Source: a virus (lineage: Duplodnaviria; Caudoviricetes). Taken from it: a stretch of DNA of 37,428 bases. Positions 4,694 through 30,096 of this stretch are shown here, piece after piece. Position 1 is the first letter of the stretch; the number at the start of each line of letters is the position of its first letter. The position numbers and the translations under genes were made by a program. The stretch spans positions 1-37,428 of IMG/VR virus record IMGVR_UViG_3300045825_000120. The stretch is one strand, 5' to 3'. Below the pieces are notes generated by a model. It searched no databases. It was not told the origin of the DNA and saw nothing but the letters and a program-made list of their open reading frames with translations.

Positions 4694-5066
4694 TGATTAC
4701 CCTCGGGAAACTGACATCTAAATCCATCTTAGTCGGTTCAACTACCCCGCTTGCTTTTCCCCTAGCGACTTCTGCGCTTATAGCGGCGCTGTATTGCTTT
4801 TCCTTAGCTGCCATATTGCGAAGCTTTAAAAGGTCTTCTAGGTGCGTTTTAAGCGTGATTTGAGCTATTTCGGCTACTGGCTTGCGTAGTTCTGCTATCC
4901 TACCCGCAACCTCCCCGTCAGACATCAGTTCTGAAGCCCTTTTGTGTACAGTAGCTGCTTTAGTGCCTTCCCCTACATTAAATGCTGAACGGTAAGCATC
5001 TGACTGGCTTACGCCTGTGACGATAGCCTGTGCAAAAGCTTCTTGCTTAGGGGTTAGTGTACTCAT
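4671..5066 (-). CDS. terS: Terminase small subunit
   Basis: LTPKQEAFAQ...SDAYRSAF HTH-type N-terminus; directly upstream of TerL. Confidence 0.85.
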   Translation of the reverse strand: MSTLTPKQEAFAQAIVTGVSQSDAYRSAFNVGEGTKAATVHKRASELMSDGEVAGRIAELRKPVAEIAQITLKTHLEDLLKLRNMAAKEKQYSAAISAEVARGKASGVVEPTKMDLDVSFPRVINVIAGRA

Positions 5067-6331
5067 ACCACCTCACTAACTGCTTTGGTACTATCAGCCT
5101 CGACCTCTGCGAATGTTGCACCTGTAGCTGCGTGTGTTGCTTGTTTACCAGTGAACTCCTGCCAGCGGCGAACAATCACATCCACATACTTGGGGTCAAG
5201 CTCCATTAGTCTAGAGTAACGCCCTGATTTTTCACACGCAATAAGTGTAGAACCTCCACCCCCAAACAAGTCAAGCACTACGTCTTGCCCTTTTGTATTG
5301 TTTAATACCTGATACTCAATAAGCTCTACAGGCTTCATTGTTGGATGAAGCCCATTTCTTGATGGACGGTCGAACTCTAGAATAGTTGTCTGCTTACGGT
5401 CTGTTGACCATAAATGTGCTGCGCCATCCTTCCACCCATACAAACAAGGCTCATGCTTCCAGTGATAGTCTTGACGACCCATAACAAGTGTTTGTTTTTT
5501 CCAAATTAAACACTGGCGAACTGTCCAGCCAGTGTCTTTGCATGCGCCACGGAAGTTGTAACCCTCTGAATCAGCATGCCATATATAAAACACAGCACCT
5601 GACTTCATAACAGCATCTGCAGCCACAAAAGCATCCATCAGAAATTGACGGAAATTGTCGTCACTCATACTGTCGTTTTGTATGGTTAGCGCGTCTTTTG
5701 TCTTTCCAGTGTATGCAACGTTATAAGGCGGGTCAGTAACCAATTGGTCAACCAACCCTCCATCCATCAGCGTTTCAACCGAATCAATACTCGTCGAATC
5801 ACCACACATTAACCTATGCTTACCAAGCAGCCAAACGTCACCAATCTTGCTTATTGGGTCAGGCCGTACATCTGGCACAGCGTCCTCGTCGGTCAATCCT
5901 TCGGGAATAACATCTGGCGACATTGCTTCTATCTCATCCAGTGTGAAGCCTGTCAACTCCAAATCAAAGCCAGCATCTTTCAGGTCGGCAAACTCTAATT
6001 TTAGTAATTCACTATCCCACCCTGCATTCAGTGCTAGTTTGTTATCAGCTATCACATAGGCTCGTTTTTGCGTCTCTGTGAGGTAATCTAGCATGATGCA
6101 TGGCACAGACTCAAGTTTCAATTTACGCGCTGCAAGCACCCTACCATGACCTGCAATAATGCCACCTTCAGCATCTATCAATATAGGGTTAGTAAATCCA
6201 AACTCTTTAATGCTTGCTGCAATTTGCGCCACTTGAGCATCATCATGGGTTCGACTATTTTTAACATAAGGGATTAAATCCTCTATTGCTAAATATTCGA
6301 TAGTTGATTCTTGTTTACTTGTTAGGCTCAT
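5063..6331 (-). CDS. ParB/Srx-domain fused N6-adenine/N4-cytosine DNA methyltransferase (beta class)
   Basis: N-term SIKEFGFTNPILID..IIAGHGR..IADNKL; TDPPY catalytic motif before HPTMKP and DLFGGGGST SAM motif. Confidence 0.92.
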   Translation of the reverse strand: MSLTSKQESTIEYLAIEDLIPYVKNSRTHDDAQVAQIAASIKEFGFTNPILIDAEGGIIAGHGRVLAARKLKLESVPCIMLDYLTETQKRAYVIADNKLALNAGWDSELLKLEFADLKDAGFDLELTGFTLDEIEAMSPDVIPEGLTDEDAVPDVRPDPISKIGDVWLLGKHRLMCGDSTSIDSVETLMDGGLVDQLVTDPPYNVAYTGKTKDALTIQNDSMSDDNFRQFLMDAFVAADAVMKSGAVFYIWHADSEGYNFRGACKDTGWTVRQCLIWKKQTLVMGRQDYHWKHEPCLYGWKDGAAHLWSTDRKQTTILEFDRPSRNGLHPTMKPVELIEYQVLNNTKGQDVVLDLFGGGGSTLIACEKSGRYSRLMELDPKYVDVIVRRWQEFTGKQATHAATGATFAEVEADSTKAVSEVV

Positions 6332-9802: not shown

Positions 9803-9845
9803 ATTTTGCCTATTATTTTATGAATGTATATTAGGGTTTACCCTA
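9803..9845 (-). promoter_or_regulatory. TAGGG-N4-CCCTA site + 23 bp + CAAAAT (-10)
   Basis: Palindrome 9832-9845; -10 hexamer at 9808-9803. Confidence 0.7.
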
Positions 9846-10545
9846 GATTCCCTATTAAAGTTTTAAATGCTTTTGCTGCAACTTCCGGGTCTTGACCATT
9901 GCCGATAGCTTTAAGTCTGTGTGACCCAAAGGCCACCCCATTAAGTGTTCTGTCCAAGCCGGGTTTATCTTTCCCCCTGCGTGTGTGGCAAGTGATGGTG
10001 TTTTCCGGGTATATTCTGCCGGGTATGCCCCCTCCTTTGCATTGTGTGCTGTAGGGGTAGGCAAGTATGAATAACCTCTCTCGTACATGCTCACCTCCGA
10101 CTGAGGCAGACGAAAACACTCCCCATCTACAGTCATACCCCATCGAGGCAAGGTCACAGATAACTTGGTCAAGCCCTCGAACAATAAGGGCTGGACTGTT
10201 TTCAATGAATGCGAATTTCGGCAGTATTTCCCAAATAATTCTCTTGAATTCTTTCCATAATCCTGATTTATTTCCGTTAATTCCAGCCCCTTTCCCTGCT
10301 GTGCTAATGTCTTGACATGGAAAGCCTCCAGCCACAACGTCAACAACTCCACACCAAGGCTTACCGTCAAAGGTTCGCACGTCATCCCAAATCGGGAAAA
10401 GCGGGAAACATCCATCGTTTTGTCGTGCAACAAGCACGGCCTGTGCGTATGGTTCAAATTCAACGGCGCAGACTGTTCTGTGTCCAAGCAATTGCCCTCC
10501 GAGAATGCCTCCACCAGCGCCCGCGAATAAATGAAGCTCATTCAT
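9838..10545 (-). CDS. C5-cytosine DNA methyltransferase, catalytic (alpha-like) chain
   Basis: Motif I LFAGAGG, IV GFPCQD, VI ENS, VIII RER, X AIGNG; motif IX not evident. Confidence 0.92.
   Translation of the reverse strand: MNELHLFAGAGGGILGGQLLGHRTVCAVEFEPYAQAVLVARQNDGCFPLFPIWDDVRTFDGKPWCGVVDVVAGGFPCQDISTAGKGAGINGNKSGLWKEFKRIIWEILPKFAFIENSPALIVRGLDQVICDLASMGYDCRWGVFSSASVGGEHVRERLFILAYPYSTQCKGGGIPGRIYPENTITCHTRRGKDKPGLDRTLNGVAFGSHRLKAIGNGQDPEVAAKAFKTLIGNLG
9855..10541 (-). CDS. Alternative-frame partner (beta-like) chain of the C5 methyltransferase
   Basis: 228 stop-free codons nested in another frame; LPTPTA and INPAWTEHLMGWP (motif-IX-like). Confidence 0.7.
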   Translation of the reverse strand: MSFIYSRALVEAFSEGNCLDTEQSAPLNLNHTHRPCLLHDKTMDVSRFSRFGMTCEPLTVSLGVELLTLWLEAFHVKTLAQQGKGLELTEINQDYGKNSRELFGKYCRNSHSLKTVQPLLFEGLTKLSVTLPRWGMTVDGECFRLPQSEVSMYERGYSYLPTPTAHNAKEGAYPAEYTRKTPSLATHAGGKINPAWTEHLMGWPLGHTDLKLSAMVKTRKLQQKHLKL

Positions 10546-17736: not shown

Positions 17737-18177
17737 TTATTTAGGCCATGCAGTAGAACAAGCTATTTTGTCGGAAACATGCCCATCAGCTTCAGCCGCG
17801 ATTCGTCTAGCCAATTCTGCACCTGTTGCGAGTATGTTTGTGACGGTATCGGCGTACTGTGCGCAGGAGGATAGGTTTGCTTGGCTTGCGTTTCGTCCTG
17901 TACGTAGACTGTCCCGCAAGCTGTTAGCAGAAGCATTGGCAGCGTTAGCAGCAGCGAGGTTAATTTCAAGTTGTTTGATTTTCGCATTTTCAGCTCCTAG
18001 CTTGCGTTTTTCGTTTTCAGTAGCACGGGTTTCAGATTGTTTTCTTGCCAATCGTTGCGCTTCTGCGTAGCTTTCTATCAACGGTTTTTGATAGTAGTCA
18101 CGAATAGAGTCATTGAACCACCACAACGCAGCCGCGCCGATTAGGGCGATAACCGCATACTCGATTAGCTTACTCAT
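17737..18177 (-). CDS. i-spanin (Rz-like)
   Basis: N-terminal TM, coiled coil, two Cys; last gene of the lysis cluster. Confidence 0.8.
   Translation of the reverse strand: MSKLIEYAVIALIGAAALWWFNDSIRDYYQKPLIESYAEAQRLARKQSETRATENEKRKLGAENAKIKQLEINLAAANAANASANSLRDSLRTGRNASQANLSSCAQYADTVTNILATGAELARRIAAEADGHVSDKIACSTAWPK
17763..17987 (-). CDS. o-spanin (Rz1-like lipoprotein), embedded
   Basis: Lipobox LTAC; Pro-rich; nested in the i-spanin in another frame. Confidence 0.75.
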   Translation of the reverse strand: MRKSNNLKLTSLLLTLPMLLLTACGTVYVQDETQAKQTYPPAHSTPIPSQTYSQQVQNWLDESRLKLMGMFPTK

Positions 18178-18641
18178 TGCGCTGGCGTCGTGGCGAATGG
18201 TGACACTGGAGTAATTGACACCAACCCATTGTTAGCTGTGCCAATGTCAGCCGCGCCTTTTGTGCTGTTGACAATACCCATAACCGCGCCAAGGTAGGCA
18301 TTGTATGCTCCACCAGCCGCGGGGACTAGCACCTTAGCCCATTCAAGCGCCTCATTTACAGGGGCAGCGATAGCAGGGGCAGCGCTTTGGATGGCACTAC
18401 CAGCCGCCGCTTTCATATTGGCAAAGGTCAACATAGCACCCATGCGGCAAACATCGCTCTCACAACCCTTAGCAGCACTGGCAACGGCTAAAGCAATGGT
18501 TTCGTCTGACTTTGCGCGAGCCTGAGCCTCTGCAATGCCTCGCTTAGAAGCTGCTTCATGCGCTGCGGTATAGGCTTGGTTGCCACCACTAGCACAGCCT
18601 TCGAGCATAGCAAAAATTAGCACAATAAATAATACTTTCAT
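18174..18641 (-). CDS. Ala-rich lipoprotein
   Basis: Signal MKVLFIVLIFAMLEGC ending in a lipobox Cys. Confidence 0.7.
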   Translation of the reverse strand: MKVLFIVLIFAMLEGCASGGNQAYTAAHEAASKRGIAEAQARAKSDETIALAVASAAKGCESDVCRMGAMLTFANMKAAAGSAIQSAAPAIAAPVNEALEWAKVLVPAAGGAYNAYLGAVMGIVNSTKGAADIGTANNGLVSITPVSPFATTPAQ

Positions 18642-18940
18642 TGGGGAATCCTTTTTTCAAAGTTGGATAAGTCACGGTCAAATTGCGTCTCAGATTCTTC
18701 GGGTTTTTTGATGTTCCCGAAACTGACTTCGGGGACATTGGCTATCGGTGCTACTTTAATAACTGGCTTTTTAACGCTAGGCTTTACAGGTATTGCTTGT
18801 TCAACTACTACAGGCACTTGCACAATAGGTGCATCTTTTGGTATTTTTATCAGCACATAAACAATCGCTAGTAGTATAGAAATCACGCCTACAGCTAGCC
18901 AGCCGCTAGTGATAAAAGCAAACAATTTACTCTGATACAT
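18638..18940 (-). CDS. Single-TM protein with Pro/Val-rich linker
   Basis: Likely start MYQSK after GGAAGG; TM WLAVGVISILLAIVYVLI. Confidence 0.6.
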   Translation of the reverse strand: MYQSKLFAFITSGWLAVGVISILLAIVYVLIKIPKDAPIVQVPVVVEQAIPVKPSVKKPVIKVAPIANVPEVSFGNIKKPEESETQFDRDLSNFEKRIPQ

Positions 18941-18996
18941 GTTTTCCTTCCAGCTTTGTCGTGTTGGGGCTAAGTATCTCTCTATCTCTAAGTCAA

Positions 18997-19113
18997 TCAC
19001 GGAAACCACCCTTTGACCGTCTTAACGATGTAAATTGCAGGGGTAACTAGCCAGCCTTTAGCGTAAGAATGCATGAATAATGCGCCTAGAACGAAACCAA
19101 TAATGAATGACAT
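18997..19113 (-). CDS. 38-aa membrane peptide (not in ORF track)
   Basis: MSFIIGFVLGALFMHSYAKGWLVTPAIYIVKTVKGWFP; AAGGGG RBS. Confidence 0.55.
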   Translation of the reverse strand: MSFIIGFVLGALFMHSYAKGWLVTPAIYIVKTVKGWFP

Positions 19114-19126
19114 AGTTATTTCCCCT

Positions 19127-19204
19127 TATAATGGGTGCATCTAGTAACCGCTGCAAACGGCTACTAGATACTTCAAACATCGCATCATTGAAAGGATTAG
19201 CGAC
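19127..19204 (+). promoter_or_regulatory. HNH-1 promoter (TATAAT), TGCAA-apex hairpin and RBS leader
   Basis: TATAAT 19127-19132; stem-loop 19139-19169; AAGGATTAGCGAC before ATG. Confidence 0.55.
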
Positions 19205-19717
19205 ATGAGCAAAGAAATTTTAACACATGAATATCTAAAATCAATACTGCATTACAGCATCATTACAGGTCAGTTTTGCTACTTACGGTCAACTGCACAA
19301 TGCGTAAAAATTGGCGCTGTAGCTGGAACTTTATCTACTAACGGCTATAACTATATAAAAATAAACGGGACTCGCTATTCTGCACATCGTCTAGCATGGT
19401 TTTGGGTAACTGGCGAATGGCCTGCAAATCAGATTGACCACACAAATGGGGTTAGAGATGCTAATTGGTGGCTTAATATGCGAGAAGCTACTTGCTCGCA
19501 GAATTGCTGTAACACCAGAAAACATATTGATAATACCAGCGGCTATAAAGGGGTTTTCTGGGAGGAAAGGCGTCAAAGGTGGCGGGCAAGCATCATGCTA
19601 AATAGGAAATCTAAACATCTTGGTTATTATGCGACGCCTGAGCTAGCCTATGCTGCGCGAATTAAAGCTGAAAAATCTATGCACGGAGATTTTTCGCGCG
19701 CTGTAATAAATCAATGA
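19205..19717 (+). CDS. HNH-AP2 homing endonuclease 1
   Basis: AHRLAW...IDHTNGVRDAN...NMRE..SQN plus NTSGYKGV..WRASI..HLGYY AP2 domain; antisense to the lysis operon. Confidence 0.9.
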   Translation: MSKEILTHEYLKSILHYSIITGQFCYLRSTAQCVKIGAVAGTLSTNGYNYIKINGTRYSAHRLAWFWVTGEWPANQIDHTNGVRDANWWLNMREATCSQNCCNTRKHIDNTSGYKGVFWEERRQRWRASIMLNRKSKHLGYYATPELAYAARIKAEKSMHGDFSRAVINQ

Positions 19718-20345
19718 TGATTTTTACCCATTTGGTAAAAGGCGTTTCAGTCAATGTTGGAGGTGTTACAGCTTCAACGGGCTTGGCTTCAAACTTGGAA
19801 AACGCCGCCGCTAGTTTTACATCGTAATTGTTAGAGGCAAAACCCGCCCCGTTGTAGCCCTTAGCAAACGCCGCCCAATCGTGATGTCTTAGCGAAGCAC
19901 CTAGCCCCGTTTTTTGAACGAATGATACAAACGCCATTAAATGCTCGCGTTCGTCTTTATACATAGCCGTGACAAATTCACCGATTGTTCCATGCCCTGC
20001 TAAGACGTGATTAAATCCCATGATTTGAAACTTACCCCAACTTGCGGACATCATCGCTGCTTCACGGTCAAGTTCCATAGCACGCTTAAGCCTAGTTTGT
20101 TCGGCTTGCCATGTTTTACCGTAATAGGTTTTCGTCCATGCGGGAAAACACAAATCAGGATGTGAGCCGCTAAATTTGCCGTTAGTGTATTTGAAAAACT
20201 TATGCCCTTCAAATAGTGTAACGGGCGTGCTATCAGGGTTAAACCCGCCATTTAATGACTCCACCTCAGATACAGCCTTGATAGCTGCGACATCGCAGTT
20301 CAGTGCTTCGGCTGCATTTTGAAAGTCTTGCTCTATGAGTTTCAT
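19677..20345 (-). CDS. Endolysin, N-acetylmuramidase (DUF3380-like)
   Basis: AIKAVSEVES, LFEGHKF, SASWGKFQIMGFNH, FAKGYNG; start MKLIEQ after AGGGA RBS. Confidence 0.9.
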   Translation of the reverse strand: MKLIEQDFQNAAEALNCDVAAIKAVSEVESLNGGFNPDSTPVTLFEGHKFFKYTNGKFSGSHPDLCFPAWTKTYYGKTWQAEQTRLKRAMELDREAAMMSASWGKFQIMGFNHVLAGHGTIGEFVTAMYKDEREHLMAFVSFVQKTGLGASLRHHDWAAFAKGYNGAGFASNNYDVKLAAAFSKFEAKPVEAVTPPTLTETPFTKWVKIIIDLLQRAKNLRA

Positions 20346-20359
20346 AAATTCCCTATTTA

Positions 20360-20440
20360 TGATAAAATATACGCAGTTAGAAGGTGTTGCAAGCACCCCT
20401 AACCACTTCTACAAATCGCATTACCTGAAGGATTAGCGAC
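20360..20440 (+). promoter_or_regulatory. HNH-2 promoter (TG-a-TAAAAT), TGCAA-apex hairpin and RBS leader
   Basis: Extended -10 at 20360-20368; stem-loop 20376-20403; same AAGGATTAGCGAC leader. Confidence 0.55.
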
Positions 20441-20950
20441 ATGAGCGAAAGCATTTTAACACATGAATATTTAAAAGAACACCTTCATTACAGCGTAATT
20501 ACTGGCAAGTTTTATTGGCTAGAATCAGCGTCAAAAAGAATTAAAACCAATGATGTAGCTGGAAATTTAACATGCAAAGACTACCGTAGAATTAGAATAA
20601 ATGGTAGTAATTATTTTGCCCATAGACTAGCATGGTTTTGGGTAACTGGCGAATGGCCTGAAAAGCAGATTGACCATAAAAACAGGATAAGAGACGATAA
20701 CTATTGGCTAAATATTCGGGAAGCTACGCAGTCTCAAAATAATTATAATAAAGGCATTAGCCCAACTAATTCTAGCGGATTTAAAGGCGTTTATTGGTAT
20801 AAGACTTACCAAAAATGGCGAGCTAATATTAGAATAAATGGGAAAAAGAAACATCTAGGCTACTTCGATAGCCCAGAATTAGCACATAAAGCCTACGTAA
20901 AAGCAGGAAAAGAGCATCATGGCGAGTTTTTTTTGGCTAATCCGCTCTAG
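20441..20950 (+). CDS. HNH-AP2 homing endonuclease 2
   Basis: AHRLAWFWVTGEWP..IDHKNRIRDDN..NIRE..SQN; NSSGFKGV..WRANI..HLGYF. Confidence 0.9.
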   Translation: MSESILTHEYLKEHLHYSVITGKFYWLESASKRIKTNDVAGNLTCKDYRRIRINGSNYFAHRLAWFWVTGEWPEKQIDHKNRIRDDNYWLNIREATQSQNNYNKGISPTNSSGFKGVYWYKTYQKWRANIRINGKKKHLGYFDSPELAHKAYVKAGKEHHGEFFLANPL

Positions 20951-21041
20951 GCGCTTCCACTTCGCAAACCGCTTGTATAGCAGCTACATCACAATTTAAA
21001 GCTGTAGCAGCCTCCTCAAAGTCTTTGGTTGTGAGTGTCAT
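20937..21041 (-). pseudogene. Truncated endolysin 5' stub (34 aa)
   Basis: MTLTTKDFEEAATALNCDVAAIQAVCEVEAPRAD* is homologous to the endolysin N-terminus; ATGA-coupled to the holin. Confidence 0.85.
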
Positions 21042-21259
21042 GGCTTAGGCTCTAAGTCTTGTTTGATAAACTTACCTATAACCCCGAATATGGCAATGGT
21101 CATGGTACTGTAAGCCATGATTGAATTAAACCCTTTAGGAAGTGCGTCAATCCATGCCTGAGGTGTAGCAGCGTAAACGCCTTGAATCGCTCCGACTGCT
21201 AACAATGCGCCTGTGCTAAAGTGTCTCCATACTTGAATTGCATTTTCTACAAGTTTCAT
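21038..21259 (-). CDS. Putative holin (2 TM)
   Basis: MKLVENAIQVWRHFS... with two hydrophobic helices; GAAGGA RBS; upstream of endolysin. Confidence 0.65.
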   Translation of the reverse strand: MKLVENAIQVWRHFSTGALLAVGAIQGVYAATPQAWIDALPKGFNSIMAYSTMTIAIFGVIGKFIKQDLEPKP

Positions 21260-21269
21260 AGTTTTTCCT

Positions 21270-21512
21270 TCAAGGTTGGTATCCATGGTTGATTGCCCAT
21301 TCTTTGAATATATAGGCAAGTCCCAGCAATAAAAACCAGACTAAACCCGCGAGTGTTTTTTCGATGACGGCTTGTCGGTATTTGATTGACTGCGCCTCGC
21401 GCTGTATCGCAAGTTTCACCCATCGGTGTTCGTCGTCCGACAATTGCGGCACTTTGTTATTGACAGCTTGAGTGATTTCATAGATGAAATTAGCGCGTTC
21501 GGCTGGCGTCAT
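21270..21512 (-). CDS. Small C-terminal-TM protein (holin/antiholin-like)
   Basis: Helical N-terminus plus TM LAGLVWFLLLGLAYIF. Confidence 0.55.
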   Translation of the reverse strand: MTPAERANFIYEITQAVNNKVPQLSDDEHRWVKLAIQREAQSIKYRQAVIEKTLAGLVWFLLLGLAYIFKEWAINHGYQP

Positions 21513-21524
21513 GAGGATTTTTCC

Positions 21525-22034
21525 CTAGTCTTTAAAAAATAAATCAGTTACATCTATTGCATCAAAGTCATATTCTAACTTCTCGAAAAACTCAGCAGGT
21601 GTTAATTCGTGCGGATTTGCCATATATGAAACGGGTAATGCTTTGGGCGTAGTTTCGTTGCAGAAAAAACGCTCTACGGAATAGTGAAGGTTGCGCAGAA
21701 AATGCAGCTTTGTCCCAGCAGCACCCAGCCAGTCGTAAGGGCAACCATCGAAGGCTTTGAACCATGCCTTGCTTGGCTCGATTGACCACTGCGGCACGTC
21801 TAACGCTATCCAATTACCTTTTGTTAGTGCAATGTCAGCCTTGGTTCTTACGCCGTGGTCACGCGCTGAGCTACTGGCAATGGTGCATAACTTGTAGTTG
21901 TTGCCAGCGTGGACACATTCTGTATGCGTCACGCGCTTAAACTTTCCTGTTTGCATCAATCGCGTGATAAACCAACCTAGACGAACCAGTATGTCATCTT
22001 TTTTGTGGTTACCGATGTAGCCTAGGACTATCAT
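21525..22034 (-). CDS. Permuted papain-like NlpC/P60 (YaeF/YiiX-like) enzyme
   Basis: THTECV (His first), GCPYDWLG, FFCNE (Cys last). Confidence 0.75.
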   Translation of the reverse strand: MIVLGYIGNHKKDDILVRLGWFITRLMQTGKFKRVTHTECVHAGNNYKLCTIASSSARDHGVRTKADIALTKGNWIALDVPQWSIEPSKAWFKAFDGCPYDWLGAAGTKLHFLRNLHYSVERFFCNETTPKALPVSYMANPHELTPAEFFEKLEYDFDAIDVTDLFFKD

Positions 22035-28466: not shown

Positions 28467-28766
28467 TTACTCCTTATCGTCTCTATCTTGATGGATACAA
28501 AACCATGCTGAATCTTCCAGCGCAGTGATTTGATGTTCTGTATGTTTTTCAACAATAATACAGTCACCAGCATCGTATACTCTCGAACTTTTAGGTGTAT
28601 CAACTCTAACCGAGCCGTAACCTAAAATTGATAAGTGTGAATAATCATGTATATGCTTGGTGATTTTATCACCTTTATTTAAAACATGCCGTTTTGCAGC
28701 TATGTTGTCAGCAAAAAAAAACTCAACTTGAAAGTATTCTTCTATAACTTGCTTGTCTGTAATCAT
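28467..28766 (-). CDS. RmlC-like cupin protein
   Basis: HIHDYSHLSILGYG...AGDCIIVEKHTEHQI. Confidence 0.75.
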   Translation of the reverse strand: MITDKQVIEEYFQVEFFFADNIAAKRHVLNKGDKITKHIHDYSHLSILGYGSVRVDTPKSSRVYDAGDCIIVEKHTEHQITALEDSAWFCIHQDRDDKE

Positions 28767-29830
28767 GGTAGTGTTTGTCCGTTGCGTTCAATTATAGATA
28801 GAAGCCCCTCATTGCCAGGGAATACGACGAAGTTAGAACTTCCAGCACCAGCACCGCGAGAGCCGCCGTCTAGGTAGCGAATTCCGGGAATGCCTTGTTT
28901 TTCTAAAAATGAGCTTGCTAATTCAGGTTTTCCTTGTGTAACAGCGGTATTCCTTTCAAGCGCTCTTAATATATCTTGACCTGTAGCGCCTTGGAAATTT
29001 GCCCCATATCCTGTTTTTAGTGATTGAAGTGCATCATATCCATTGTCATCAATCAAACTTCCAAGTGTTTTTTGAACATCTGGATGCTGCCCACTCAAAG
29101 GCTTATCCCAATCCAGCATCTTTGCAATGTGTTCGTCGGGTAGGTCTACTTTGTAGATTTGTGCTTGGTCTATGATTCTTTGAAGCTTTGCTTCTTCTGC
29201 AGGTATGCTTTTTAATGCGTACTCGTCACCAGCCGCTGCTTTTCTTTTTAAAGACTCTATAAGAGTATTTCTAGAATCAATCCCATCTTGCACCGAACCA
29301 TACTTAGCTCTCGGCATCATAGAGCTTGTATCTAGTCTAACAGGGCCACCATTTATATCTGTTAAGTTTTTTGCATAACTACCAGCCACTTCAGGCGATT
29401 CTGCCAAATACAAGCCATGCCCATAAGCCTGCGCACCTTCACCCGTTCCAATCTTAGAAGCGTCGAACTTGTCAAACTTATGCGGTGAACCATGCCACAC
29501 AACCGCACCTGTTTGCGGATTTAGCGTTCTAGGCGCTGCCATGTTTTCAGCACCTTGTAGCAAACCTTTAGCTATTTGTGCGGCTTTTGCCGCTGCCAGT
29601 ATTGGGGCTAATCCACCAACTGTTTCACCTAGTAAGCCAGCAAACTTGTTCTCAACATCTTTAGTTAGCCCTTTTTGCTTCATCCAGTCAGAGCCACCCA
29701 TAGGCGCGTCACCAACGGGAACACCAGCTTTTCTAAGCCCCCATGAAATCAAATCAACAGGTGCGCTCACATTAGAAGCCGCGCTGTTGCTCATACTTTG
29801 GATAAAATCTAATAATGCATTTTGTGCCAT
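28763..29830 (-). CDS. Protein with ART-PolyVal-like (ADP-ribosyltransferase-fold) domain
   Basis: VWHGSPHKFDKFD..KIGTGEGAQAYGHGLYLAES...GIPGIRYLD...NFVVF; likely start MAQNALL. Confidence 0.7.
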   Translation of the reverse strand: MAQNALLDFIQSMSNSAASNVSAPVDLISWGLRKAGVPVGDAPMGGSDWMKQKGLTKDVENKFAGLLGETVGGLAPILAAAKAAQIAKGLLQGAENMAAPRTLNPQTGAVVWHGSPHKFDKFDASKIGTGEGAQAYGHGLYLAESPEVAGSYAKNLTDINGGPVRLDTSSMMPRAKYGSVQDGIDSRNTLIESLKRKAAAGDEYALKSIPAEEAKLQRIIDQAQIYKVDLPDEHIAKMLDWDKPLSGQHPDVQKTLGSLIDDNGYDALQSLKTGYGANFQGATGQDILRALERNTAVTQGKPELASSFLEKQGIPGIRYLDGGSRGAGAGSSNFVVFPGNEGLLSIIERNGQTLP

Positions 29831-29832
29831 AT

Positions 29833-30096
29833 CTACCCTAGTAAATTCCACGCGCTCGAATGATAGCCATAGTACCCCTTACTTGCACCAAGTACCCCAG
29901 CCGCTGCGAACCTAATCATGCCGTCTCTAGGCTTAGATGGTGCGACTGTAATCATCTCTAAAAATCCGTCAGCATTGTTGTTCAAAGCTGTTTCAATGCC
30001 ATTTAATTCTGTAGCTAAAAATACAACCATAGCAGCGAAGTCAGTAGGTATTAAACCTACCGTGTATCGTTTTGTTGCTCCTGCAGTATTACGCAT
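29833..30096 (-). CDS. Small tail-associated protein
   Basis: 87 aa; PSKPRDGMIRFA...GYYGY..W; follows the nozzle gene. Confidence 0.6.
   Translation of the reverse strand: MRNTAGATKRYTVGLIPTDFAAMVVFLATELNGIETALNNNADGFLEMITVAPSKPRDGMIRFAAAGVLGASKGYYGYHSSAWNLLG

Follow-up and report, generated by a model that had tools for sequence, protein, structure and literature searches.

Homing elements that supply a replacement end for the gene they invade are known from fungi. The WHO elements of Torulaspora and Lachancea yeasts (PMC7282813; bioRxiv 10.64898/2026.08.13.744650) combine a LAGLIDADG-zinc finger nuclease gene with a new 3' end for the nuclear gene FBA1 and occur in tandem clusters, and allele-specific cutting has been proven for them (PMC7282813). 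The 2026 preprint treats such gene-end-replacing elements as a third category of homing element, considerably rarer than introns and inteins. In fungal mitochondria, mobile endonuclease ORFs (mORFs) with foreign C-termini have been described for atp6 of Allomyces and for atp6, atp9, cox2 and nad3 of Glomus (PMC3630166, PMC7487136), and GIY genes duplicated along with the atp9 N-terminus are mentioned (PMC7487136). Phages carry free-standing HNH homing endonucleases, exemplified by T4 MobA/MobE, Aeh1 mobE in nrdA and the antisense segD (PMC2988022), as well as IPA-HNH genes and HEG islands (PMC10448857). The accessible parts of these last two sources contain no description of a duplicated gene end beside a free-standing phage HNH gene, and the term "phage", searched at word starts, is found in neither WHO paper. 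A search of titles and abstract openings, with most of the subscription literature outside its reach, returned no description of gene-end replacement in phages or at 5' ends, which is weak evidence.

The locus described here, an endolysin gene in the lysis region of a phage, resembles the WHO elements in that a nuclease gene is joined to a replacement piece of an essential host gene without splicing, in that the displaced native fragment is left in place, putatively as a homology arm, and in that the site lies at active-site codons. It differs from them in its nuclease (HNH-AP2), its host gene (a phage endolysin), its antisense orientation and its replacement of a 5' end together with the ribosome-binding site, and in that cutting is a prediction; furthermore, the HNH-AP2 family appears to replace gene ends at many different genes. 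With the mORFs it shares a native piece that matches relatives, an inserted piece that is diverged mostly at synonymous positions, and an endonuclease ORF between the two copies; the mORFs differ in being organellar, in encoding LAGLIDADG or GIY-YIG nucleases, in replacing C-termini and in having no polycistronic coupling to restore. With the free-standing phage HNH genes it shares a nuclease gene, free of any intron, that lies within or next to an essential gene of the phage, and the HNH plus AP2 architecture, but whereas MobA and Aeh1 mobE split a gene into two working polypeptides, here a foreign start restores the whole gene. A host gene is restored by a diverged piece and the native piece is displaced; the cassette works like a WHO element or an mORF and is a member of neither. 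The principle of gene-end replacement is already known from those fungal systems, which an earlier sequence-only reading of this DNA had missed.

The lysis region and its two HNH genes

The window, which is the whole virus record of 37,428 nt, encodes SU10-type portal, capsid and adaptor proteins and a terminase (Pfam). Its lysis genes lie on the minus strand in the order holin, endolysin, three genes of unknown function and a spanin-like pair. Two plus-strand HNH-AP2 genes, HNH-1 and HNH-2, bracket the endolysin, as nuclease genes flank an essential gene on both sides in a HEG island, and share 57% amino acid identity (Table 1).

Table 1. Features of the endolysin locus, in window positions
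Feature	Position	Strand	Remarks
Holin	21038-21259	-	PHROG 1356 holin, E 5e-10; DUF7940; stop overlaps stub ATG (ATGA)
Stub ORF	20937-21041	-	34 codons; ATG overlaps holin stop (ATGA)
Native endolysin start (stub codons 1-31)	20949-21041	-	Includes catalytic-Glu codon 29 (20955-20957)
Insert, whole	20254-20949		696 bp, boundary +/- 1 codon; HNH-2, leader and replacement start
HNH-2	20441-20950	+	Intact HNH-AP2 endonuclease gene, 169 aa, antisense to lysis genes
Leader	20346-20440		95 nt, between HNH-2 and endolysin ATG
Replacement (foreign) endolysin codons 1-32	20250-20345	-	Catalytic Glu29 at 20259-20261
Native endolysin body, codons 33-203	19737-20249	-	PF11860 N-acetylmuramidase, Pfam E 7e-57; PDB 7q4s, 5nm7, 7rum
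Foreign endolysin C-terminus, codons 204-222	19677-19736	-	Overlaps last 41 nt of HNH-1
HNH-1 with leader	19119-19717 (HNH-1 gene 19205-19717)	+	Sister HNH-AP2 gene

The holin is 77% identical in amino acid sequence to the gene directly preceding the endolysin of L001, one of two close relatives compared below. The three genes between the endolysin and the spanin-like pair (38, 123 and 155 aa) are unannotated and are conserved in both relatives, L001 and L085. The spanin-like pair is nested (17737-18177 and 17763-17987, minus strand), and its inner ORF of 74 aa is lipoprotein-like with a weak PHROG spanin match. Elsewhere, the window encodes two DNA methyltransferases, one of the N6/N4 type with a ParB-like N-terminus (5063-6331) and one of the C5 type (9838-10545), and a virion-region gene (28763-29851, minus strand) whose match to ART-PolyVal (ADP-ribosyltransferase) is weak and does not reach the Pfam cut-off (E 5.5e-6).

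Two starts for one endolysin

The sequence-only reading had described a short endolysin-like stub that overlaps the holin stop, an opposite-strand HNH gene whose stop lies inside that stub, and an intact endolysin further on. All three were found where it placed them, the intact endolysin ATG lying at 20345 (minus strand), 696 nt beyond the stub ATG, and the HNH-2 stop TAG (20948-20950) overlapping stub codons 31-32. The reported likeness of the two starts also held: aligned without gaps they agree at 20/29 residues and 57/87 nucleotides, with different codons used at 13 of the 20 identical residues. When the stub was compared (ungapped, BLOSUM62) with all 74,648 six-frame positions of the window, it scored 171 against itself, 92 against the endolysin start and 24 against the next best position.

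The endolysin matches PF11860 (DUF3380) at 193 bits (Pfam cut-off 22.3) and has the single catalytic Glu. This residue, E29, aligns with Glu101 of AP3gp15 (5nm7), whose change to Ala costs 99.4% of activity (PMC5674055). The insert breaks the gene two codons after E29, in agreement with the proposal that the break falls just past the probable catalytic Glu. The clearly native part of the stub is codons 1-31 only.

The stub is the native start

It had been predicted that relatives without the HNH gene would have a stub-like start fused to the endolysin body. The endolysin relatives compared were the top 80 of 81 viral-contig matches and the top 80 of 291 metagenome-contig matches; L001 and L085 (82-83% aa) are the only close and syntenic ones among these 160 loci. 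Both are HNH-free, and in both the holin stop overlaps a stub-type endolysin start that runs straight into the body, bearing out the prediction together with the coupling to the holin. Against L001, the stub is identical at 77/90 nt (codons 2-31; 86%) and the body at 431/513 (84%), and the replacement start at 51/93 (55%). Against L085, the corresponding values are 66/75 (codons 7-31), 423/513 (82%) and 47/78. The stub does not differ from the body in identity to either relative (Fisher p 0.88 and 0.32), whereas the replacement is less identical than the body (p 5e-9 against L001, p 3e-5 against L085) and shows synonymous differences at 14/19 conserved codons, compared with 51/153 in the body (p 9e-4). 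Divergence changes in sharp steps at both cassette edges.

Empty alleles were also found in the river-metagenome run X4, where one contig joins position 20253 to 20950, skipping the insert in register, and a second joins 20243 to 20945 with five other letters between (net 696). These contigs and the register of stub and replacement define the insert bounds in Table 1. Thus, judged by the divergence of stub, body and replacement from L001 and L085 and by the X4 empty alleles, the stub is the native start of the gene and the functional start is foreign, a call anchored by two full-length close relatives. Occupied (window) and empty alleles (L001, L085 and the X4 contigs) coexist among relatives. 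If the endolysin start had been duplicated locally, on either side of an inserted HNH gene, and had then diverged there, the 20/29 residues kept in both copies would be explained, but the stub should be the diverged one; instead the functional copy is diverged (55-60% nt identity to relatives) and the stub is as similar as the body (86-88%) with no decay, which makes this course of events quite improbable.

A second endolysin N-terminus or an HNH match was present at 0/160 endolysin loci in a scan that flagged the window's own locus as a positive control, with 129 of the 160 HNH-free loci having at least 800 nt upstream; a duplication in HNH-free relatives, which would have spoken against the earlier reading, was therefore not encountered among them. 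A search with a neighbouring gene as query returned only the contig of L001 again and one weak match. A donor of the replacement start was not found among the endolysin relatives, whose nearest N-termini agree at only 54-58/81 nt; the replacement resembles the ordinary 'EVES' N-termini of distant endolysins (L096, L016, L017).

Misassembly is scarcely credible as the source of the layout. The junctions are bridged only by contigs of the Logan run X1, possibly the record's own source sample; on the other hand, these contigs span both junctions without differences, copies that are 66% alike do not cause misjoins, and the same layout occurs in finished phage genomes. In addition, run X2 (Logan), in which no junction is bridged, holds 151 nt of HNH-2 without differences and the HNH-1 sequence exactly.

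HNH-2 and the shared leader

HNH-2 has an HNH_3 domain (E 1.3e-12) and an AP2 domain (E 3.8e-7, below its Pfam cut-off), and belongs to phrog_99 (PHROG, E 7e-69), for which about 3,700 stretches are estimated in IMG/VR. Its family profile matches I-HmuI (1u3e, E 9e-6) and also AP2 structures. Residues D78, H79, N87, N91 and N100 are invariant in 20 aligned sequences; in I-HmuI, D74, H75, N83 and N96 have catalytic roles. HNH-2 is an intact HNH nuclease with a DNA-binding domain that lies outside an intron or intein.

HNH-bearing introns occur in phage lysin genes, and if the insert were a self-splicing intron that carries its endonuclease gene in antisense, with the stub as exon 1, the 5' splice site would lie after codon 31 (CCU), which ends in U as group I 5' exons do. 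This reading is highly improbable: the stretch 18500-22000 has 0 Rfam matches up to E 5, the insert is fully taken by the 510-nt ORF, the 95-nt leader and 32 conserved codons, leaving no room for an intron core, and a complete downstream ORF with its own Shine-Dalgarno (SD) sequence makes splicing needless. The earlier description of a splicing-free cassette is consistent with all of this.

On the minus strand, the leader has an AGGGA, resembling an SD, 4 nt ahead of the endolysin ATG; with it, the cassette brings the diverged ribosome-binding site and N-terminus that the sequence-only reading had credited with restoring the gene. The plus strand has the HNH-2 SD, a hairpin and a promoter-like site with a TG-extended -10 (20341-20368); the -35 box of this site overlaps the ATG of the endolysin. 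The promoter scan found 5 sites against 6.4 expected and is not significant alone; the hairpin is likewise not significant (fold z -1.05), and none of the leader hairpins compared exceeded shuffled sequences in stability (z -1.9 to +0.8). Terminator and promoter counts are at chance level, so that the two terminator-like sites within HNH-2 carry no weight.

The two HNH leaders share the same 17 nt ending at the ATG. A shared 15-nt HNH leader motif was found at 29 loci in viral contigs, none with an HNH or lysis gene match. HNH-2 alone matched two loci in viral contigs at 45-54%, in same-strand context and with no duplication; its closest relative (62% aa) comes without context, and two scans of prokaryote genomes with HNH alignments found nothing. 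In run X4, a 363-nt contig resembles the window over the HNH-2 leader alone (20358-20463, 13 of 106 nt differing) and extends beyond it in both directions, which places a related leader in different surroundings. The 36-kb phage IMGVR_UViG_3300046328_000264 (L274, L276) carries, at different sites, a pair of HNH genes from the same close clade.

HNH-1 and the other end of the endolysin

The sequence-only reading missed that the 3' end of the endolysin, beside HNH-1, is foreign as well. Codons 204-216 are identical to L001 at 15/39 nt and to L085 at 14/39, compared with 34/39 between L001 and L085 (p 1e-9), and HNH-1 is absent from both. Run X3 has a contig that is 95% identical to 19119-19755 (29 of 637 nt differ); the match covers HNH-1 with its leader and reaches 38 nt past the HNH-1 stop, taking in the last ~22 endolysin codons. 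Its flanks are unlike the window on both sides; on inspection by eye, these outer parts resemble a divergent endolysin linker and a homologue of the gene that follows. Protein P0007, encoded on a contig as long as the X3 one, is 94% identical to HNH-1. From the X3 match with its unlike flanks, we conclude that HNH-1 and the foreign endolysin C-terminus travel together between phages. The HNH-1 leader holds the SD of the next lysis-strand gene. In the duplication screen described below, no remnant of an old endolysin 3' end was detected at HNH-1, which appears to have replaced the endolysin 3' end in a similar manner without leaving a remnant.

The cargo of a HEG island (>90% identity between diverged phages) travels along with its nuclease genes. 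In X3, by contrast, identity stops 38 nt past the HNH-1 stop, and HNH-1 is not accompanied by the endolysin body that the two nuclease genes bracket in the window; a second island of this kind was not found. As to lateral spread, HNH-1 recurs at 95% with unlike flanks, and a second genome with the HNH-2 cassette at the endolysin site was seen at 0/160 endolysin loci.

A model for homing without splicing

By analogy with the WHO elements, we propose that the 696-bp cassette probably spreads by homing that needs no splicing; its foreign start is predicted both to maintain endolysin function and to escape cutting by HNH-2. During co-infection, HNH-2, made from its own leader, would nick or cut the empty allele at or near codons 27-36, and repair would copy the donor cassette, using holin and stub as homology arm on one side and the endolysin body on the other. 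The donor's own site would be split by the insert, and the replacement has changes at 7/9 nt of codons 30-32, where it reads Ser-Leu-Asn instead of Ala-Pro-Arg, and at the majority of synonymous positions in the preceding codons; as a result, neither donor copy would rebuild the predicted target site. The stub may be kept because it serves as a homology arm, continually renewed from recipients. The antisense orientation would allow one 95-nt leader to serve both the nuclease and the restarted gene. As a side effect, holin-coupled ribosomes would make a dead peptide of 34 aa and the endolysin would need its own SD, so that its translation would be uncoupled from that of the holin.

Homing is supported by the empty alleles in relatives, the sharp divergence steps at the cassette edges, the insert site beside the catalytic Glu, the intact nuclease motifs, the absence of a duplication from the 160 HNH-free loci, the X3 match of HNH-1 and the recurrence of the design at other HNH-AP2 loci (below); the single occupied HNH-2 allele, the failure to find the replacement's donor and the lack of such a duplication at 93 of 98 related HNH loci count against it. 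The cleavage sites of free-standing T4 nucleases are often hundreds of bases away from the nuclease gene (PMC2988022), and the HNH-2 target may therefore lie elsewhere.

The same layout at other HNH-AP2 loci

The layout could also be the scar of a single recombination event in which DNA of a distant phage, with an HNH gene head-to-head to its endolysin, entered by homologous recombination in the body and illegitimate recombination at codon 31, without homing here and with the nuclease target elsewhere or none. Only one occupied allele was seen, the replacement resembles ordinary N-termini, and any such cassette must first arise through an event of that kind. We nevertheless regard a one-off scar as unlikely, since the break adjoins the catalytic codon and the same geometry recurs at four unrelated genes.

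This recurrence emerged from a screen of 108 HNH loci (106 fetched and the two of the window), of which 98 others remained after eight had been dropped for short flanks or duplicate sequence. The screen, anchored at the HNH stop, looked for a peptide near the stop that is repeated before or at the HNH start within 450 nt; mismatched pairs reached a maximum of 49-51, and HNH-2 of the window scored 96. A duplicated gene end was found at 5/98 other HNH-AP2 loci, representing four events, and none at the remaining 93 of these related loci. The screened loci are those most like HNH-2 and the larger scan covered 11/64 parts, so the rate is not unbiased. In three of the four genes, 87-92 nt separate the end of the leader-side copy from the HNH start although the search extended over 450 nt, a further point against a scar.

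In L248 (1959-2552; score 92), a single locus with the same-strand 5' form, the 5' piece is fused in frame to the HNH gene, whose ORF opens with 18/18 aa (40/54 nt) of the following gene's start. In L245 (1852-2515; score 62), the 3' end of ninB is replaced; the remnant, whose first codon is overlapped by the HNH stop, still overlaps the start of the following gene. The replacement end occurs in 0/68 relatives, and of 57 relatives compared that lack the insert, 55 are closer to the remnant, one to the replacement and one is tied. L277 (1860-2545; score 56) has an antisense HNH gene and an in-register duplication of the last 15 codons of the upstream gene, confirmed by the HNH-free L379, although which copy is native is ambiguous (36/45 versus 33/45 nt); the leader-side copy carries the next gene's ribosome-binding site. 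L242 (1880-2560) and L222 (scores 44 and 43; p 0.003-0.008) represent one event in an Rz-like spanin gene whose 3' end, as in L245, is replaced. Matches at L244, L262 and L199 in an unanchored duplication screen were GC-rich and off-frame, and L278 (score 49), L264, L199 and L291 were rejected for low identity and non-coding frames.

Taken together, these loci lead us to suggest, tentatively and at somewhat less than even confidence, that phrog_99 HNH-AP2 genes may form a widespread class of phage homing genes that repair their targets by swapping either gene end, in either orientation, at about one locus in 20. Two sister elements would then have capped both ends of the endolysin in the window, giving a three-part chimera with active-site codons recoded to escape cutting and translation freed from its link to the holin. 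Should gene-end replacement be routine for phage HNH-AP2 genes, the third category of homing elements would be common and would extend to 5' ends and ribosome-binding sites, and selfish nucleases would have a means of exchanging the ends of essential lysis genes and of altering how operons are coupled. Annotation overlooks the short remnants.

In the spanin case, natural empty and occupied alleles exist in cultured phages, so that the model can be put to a direct test there. Over 1,401 nt, L242 and Salmonella phage SB28 have the same sequence, and the spanin cassette occurs in several phage genera, which again argues against a one-off scar. The comparison covered 8 of 198 matching records together with L242 and L222. 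Among the Salmonella/Escherichia phages in it, 5/5 HNH-carrying sequences, L242 and L222 included, have the replaced spanin end and the remnant, and the natural HNH-free phages (ST44, Akira, Bas78 and KFS-SE2) have the remnant-type end in 4/4 cases. The carriers are the cultured Salmonella phages SB28, seszw, LPSTLL and BUCT_XGG_PSM_3377 (L242, L222, L368, L372, L373), in which the remnant behind the HNH gene is unannotated. The replaced stretch seems long, with identities of 11-18/30 nt per block over ~150 nt upstream. In one mutant clone, the HNH gene is gone and both spanin copies are kept.
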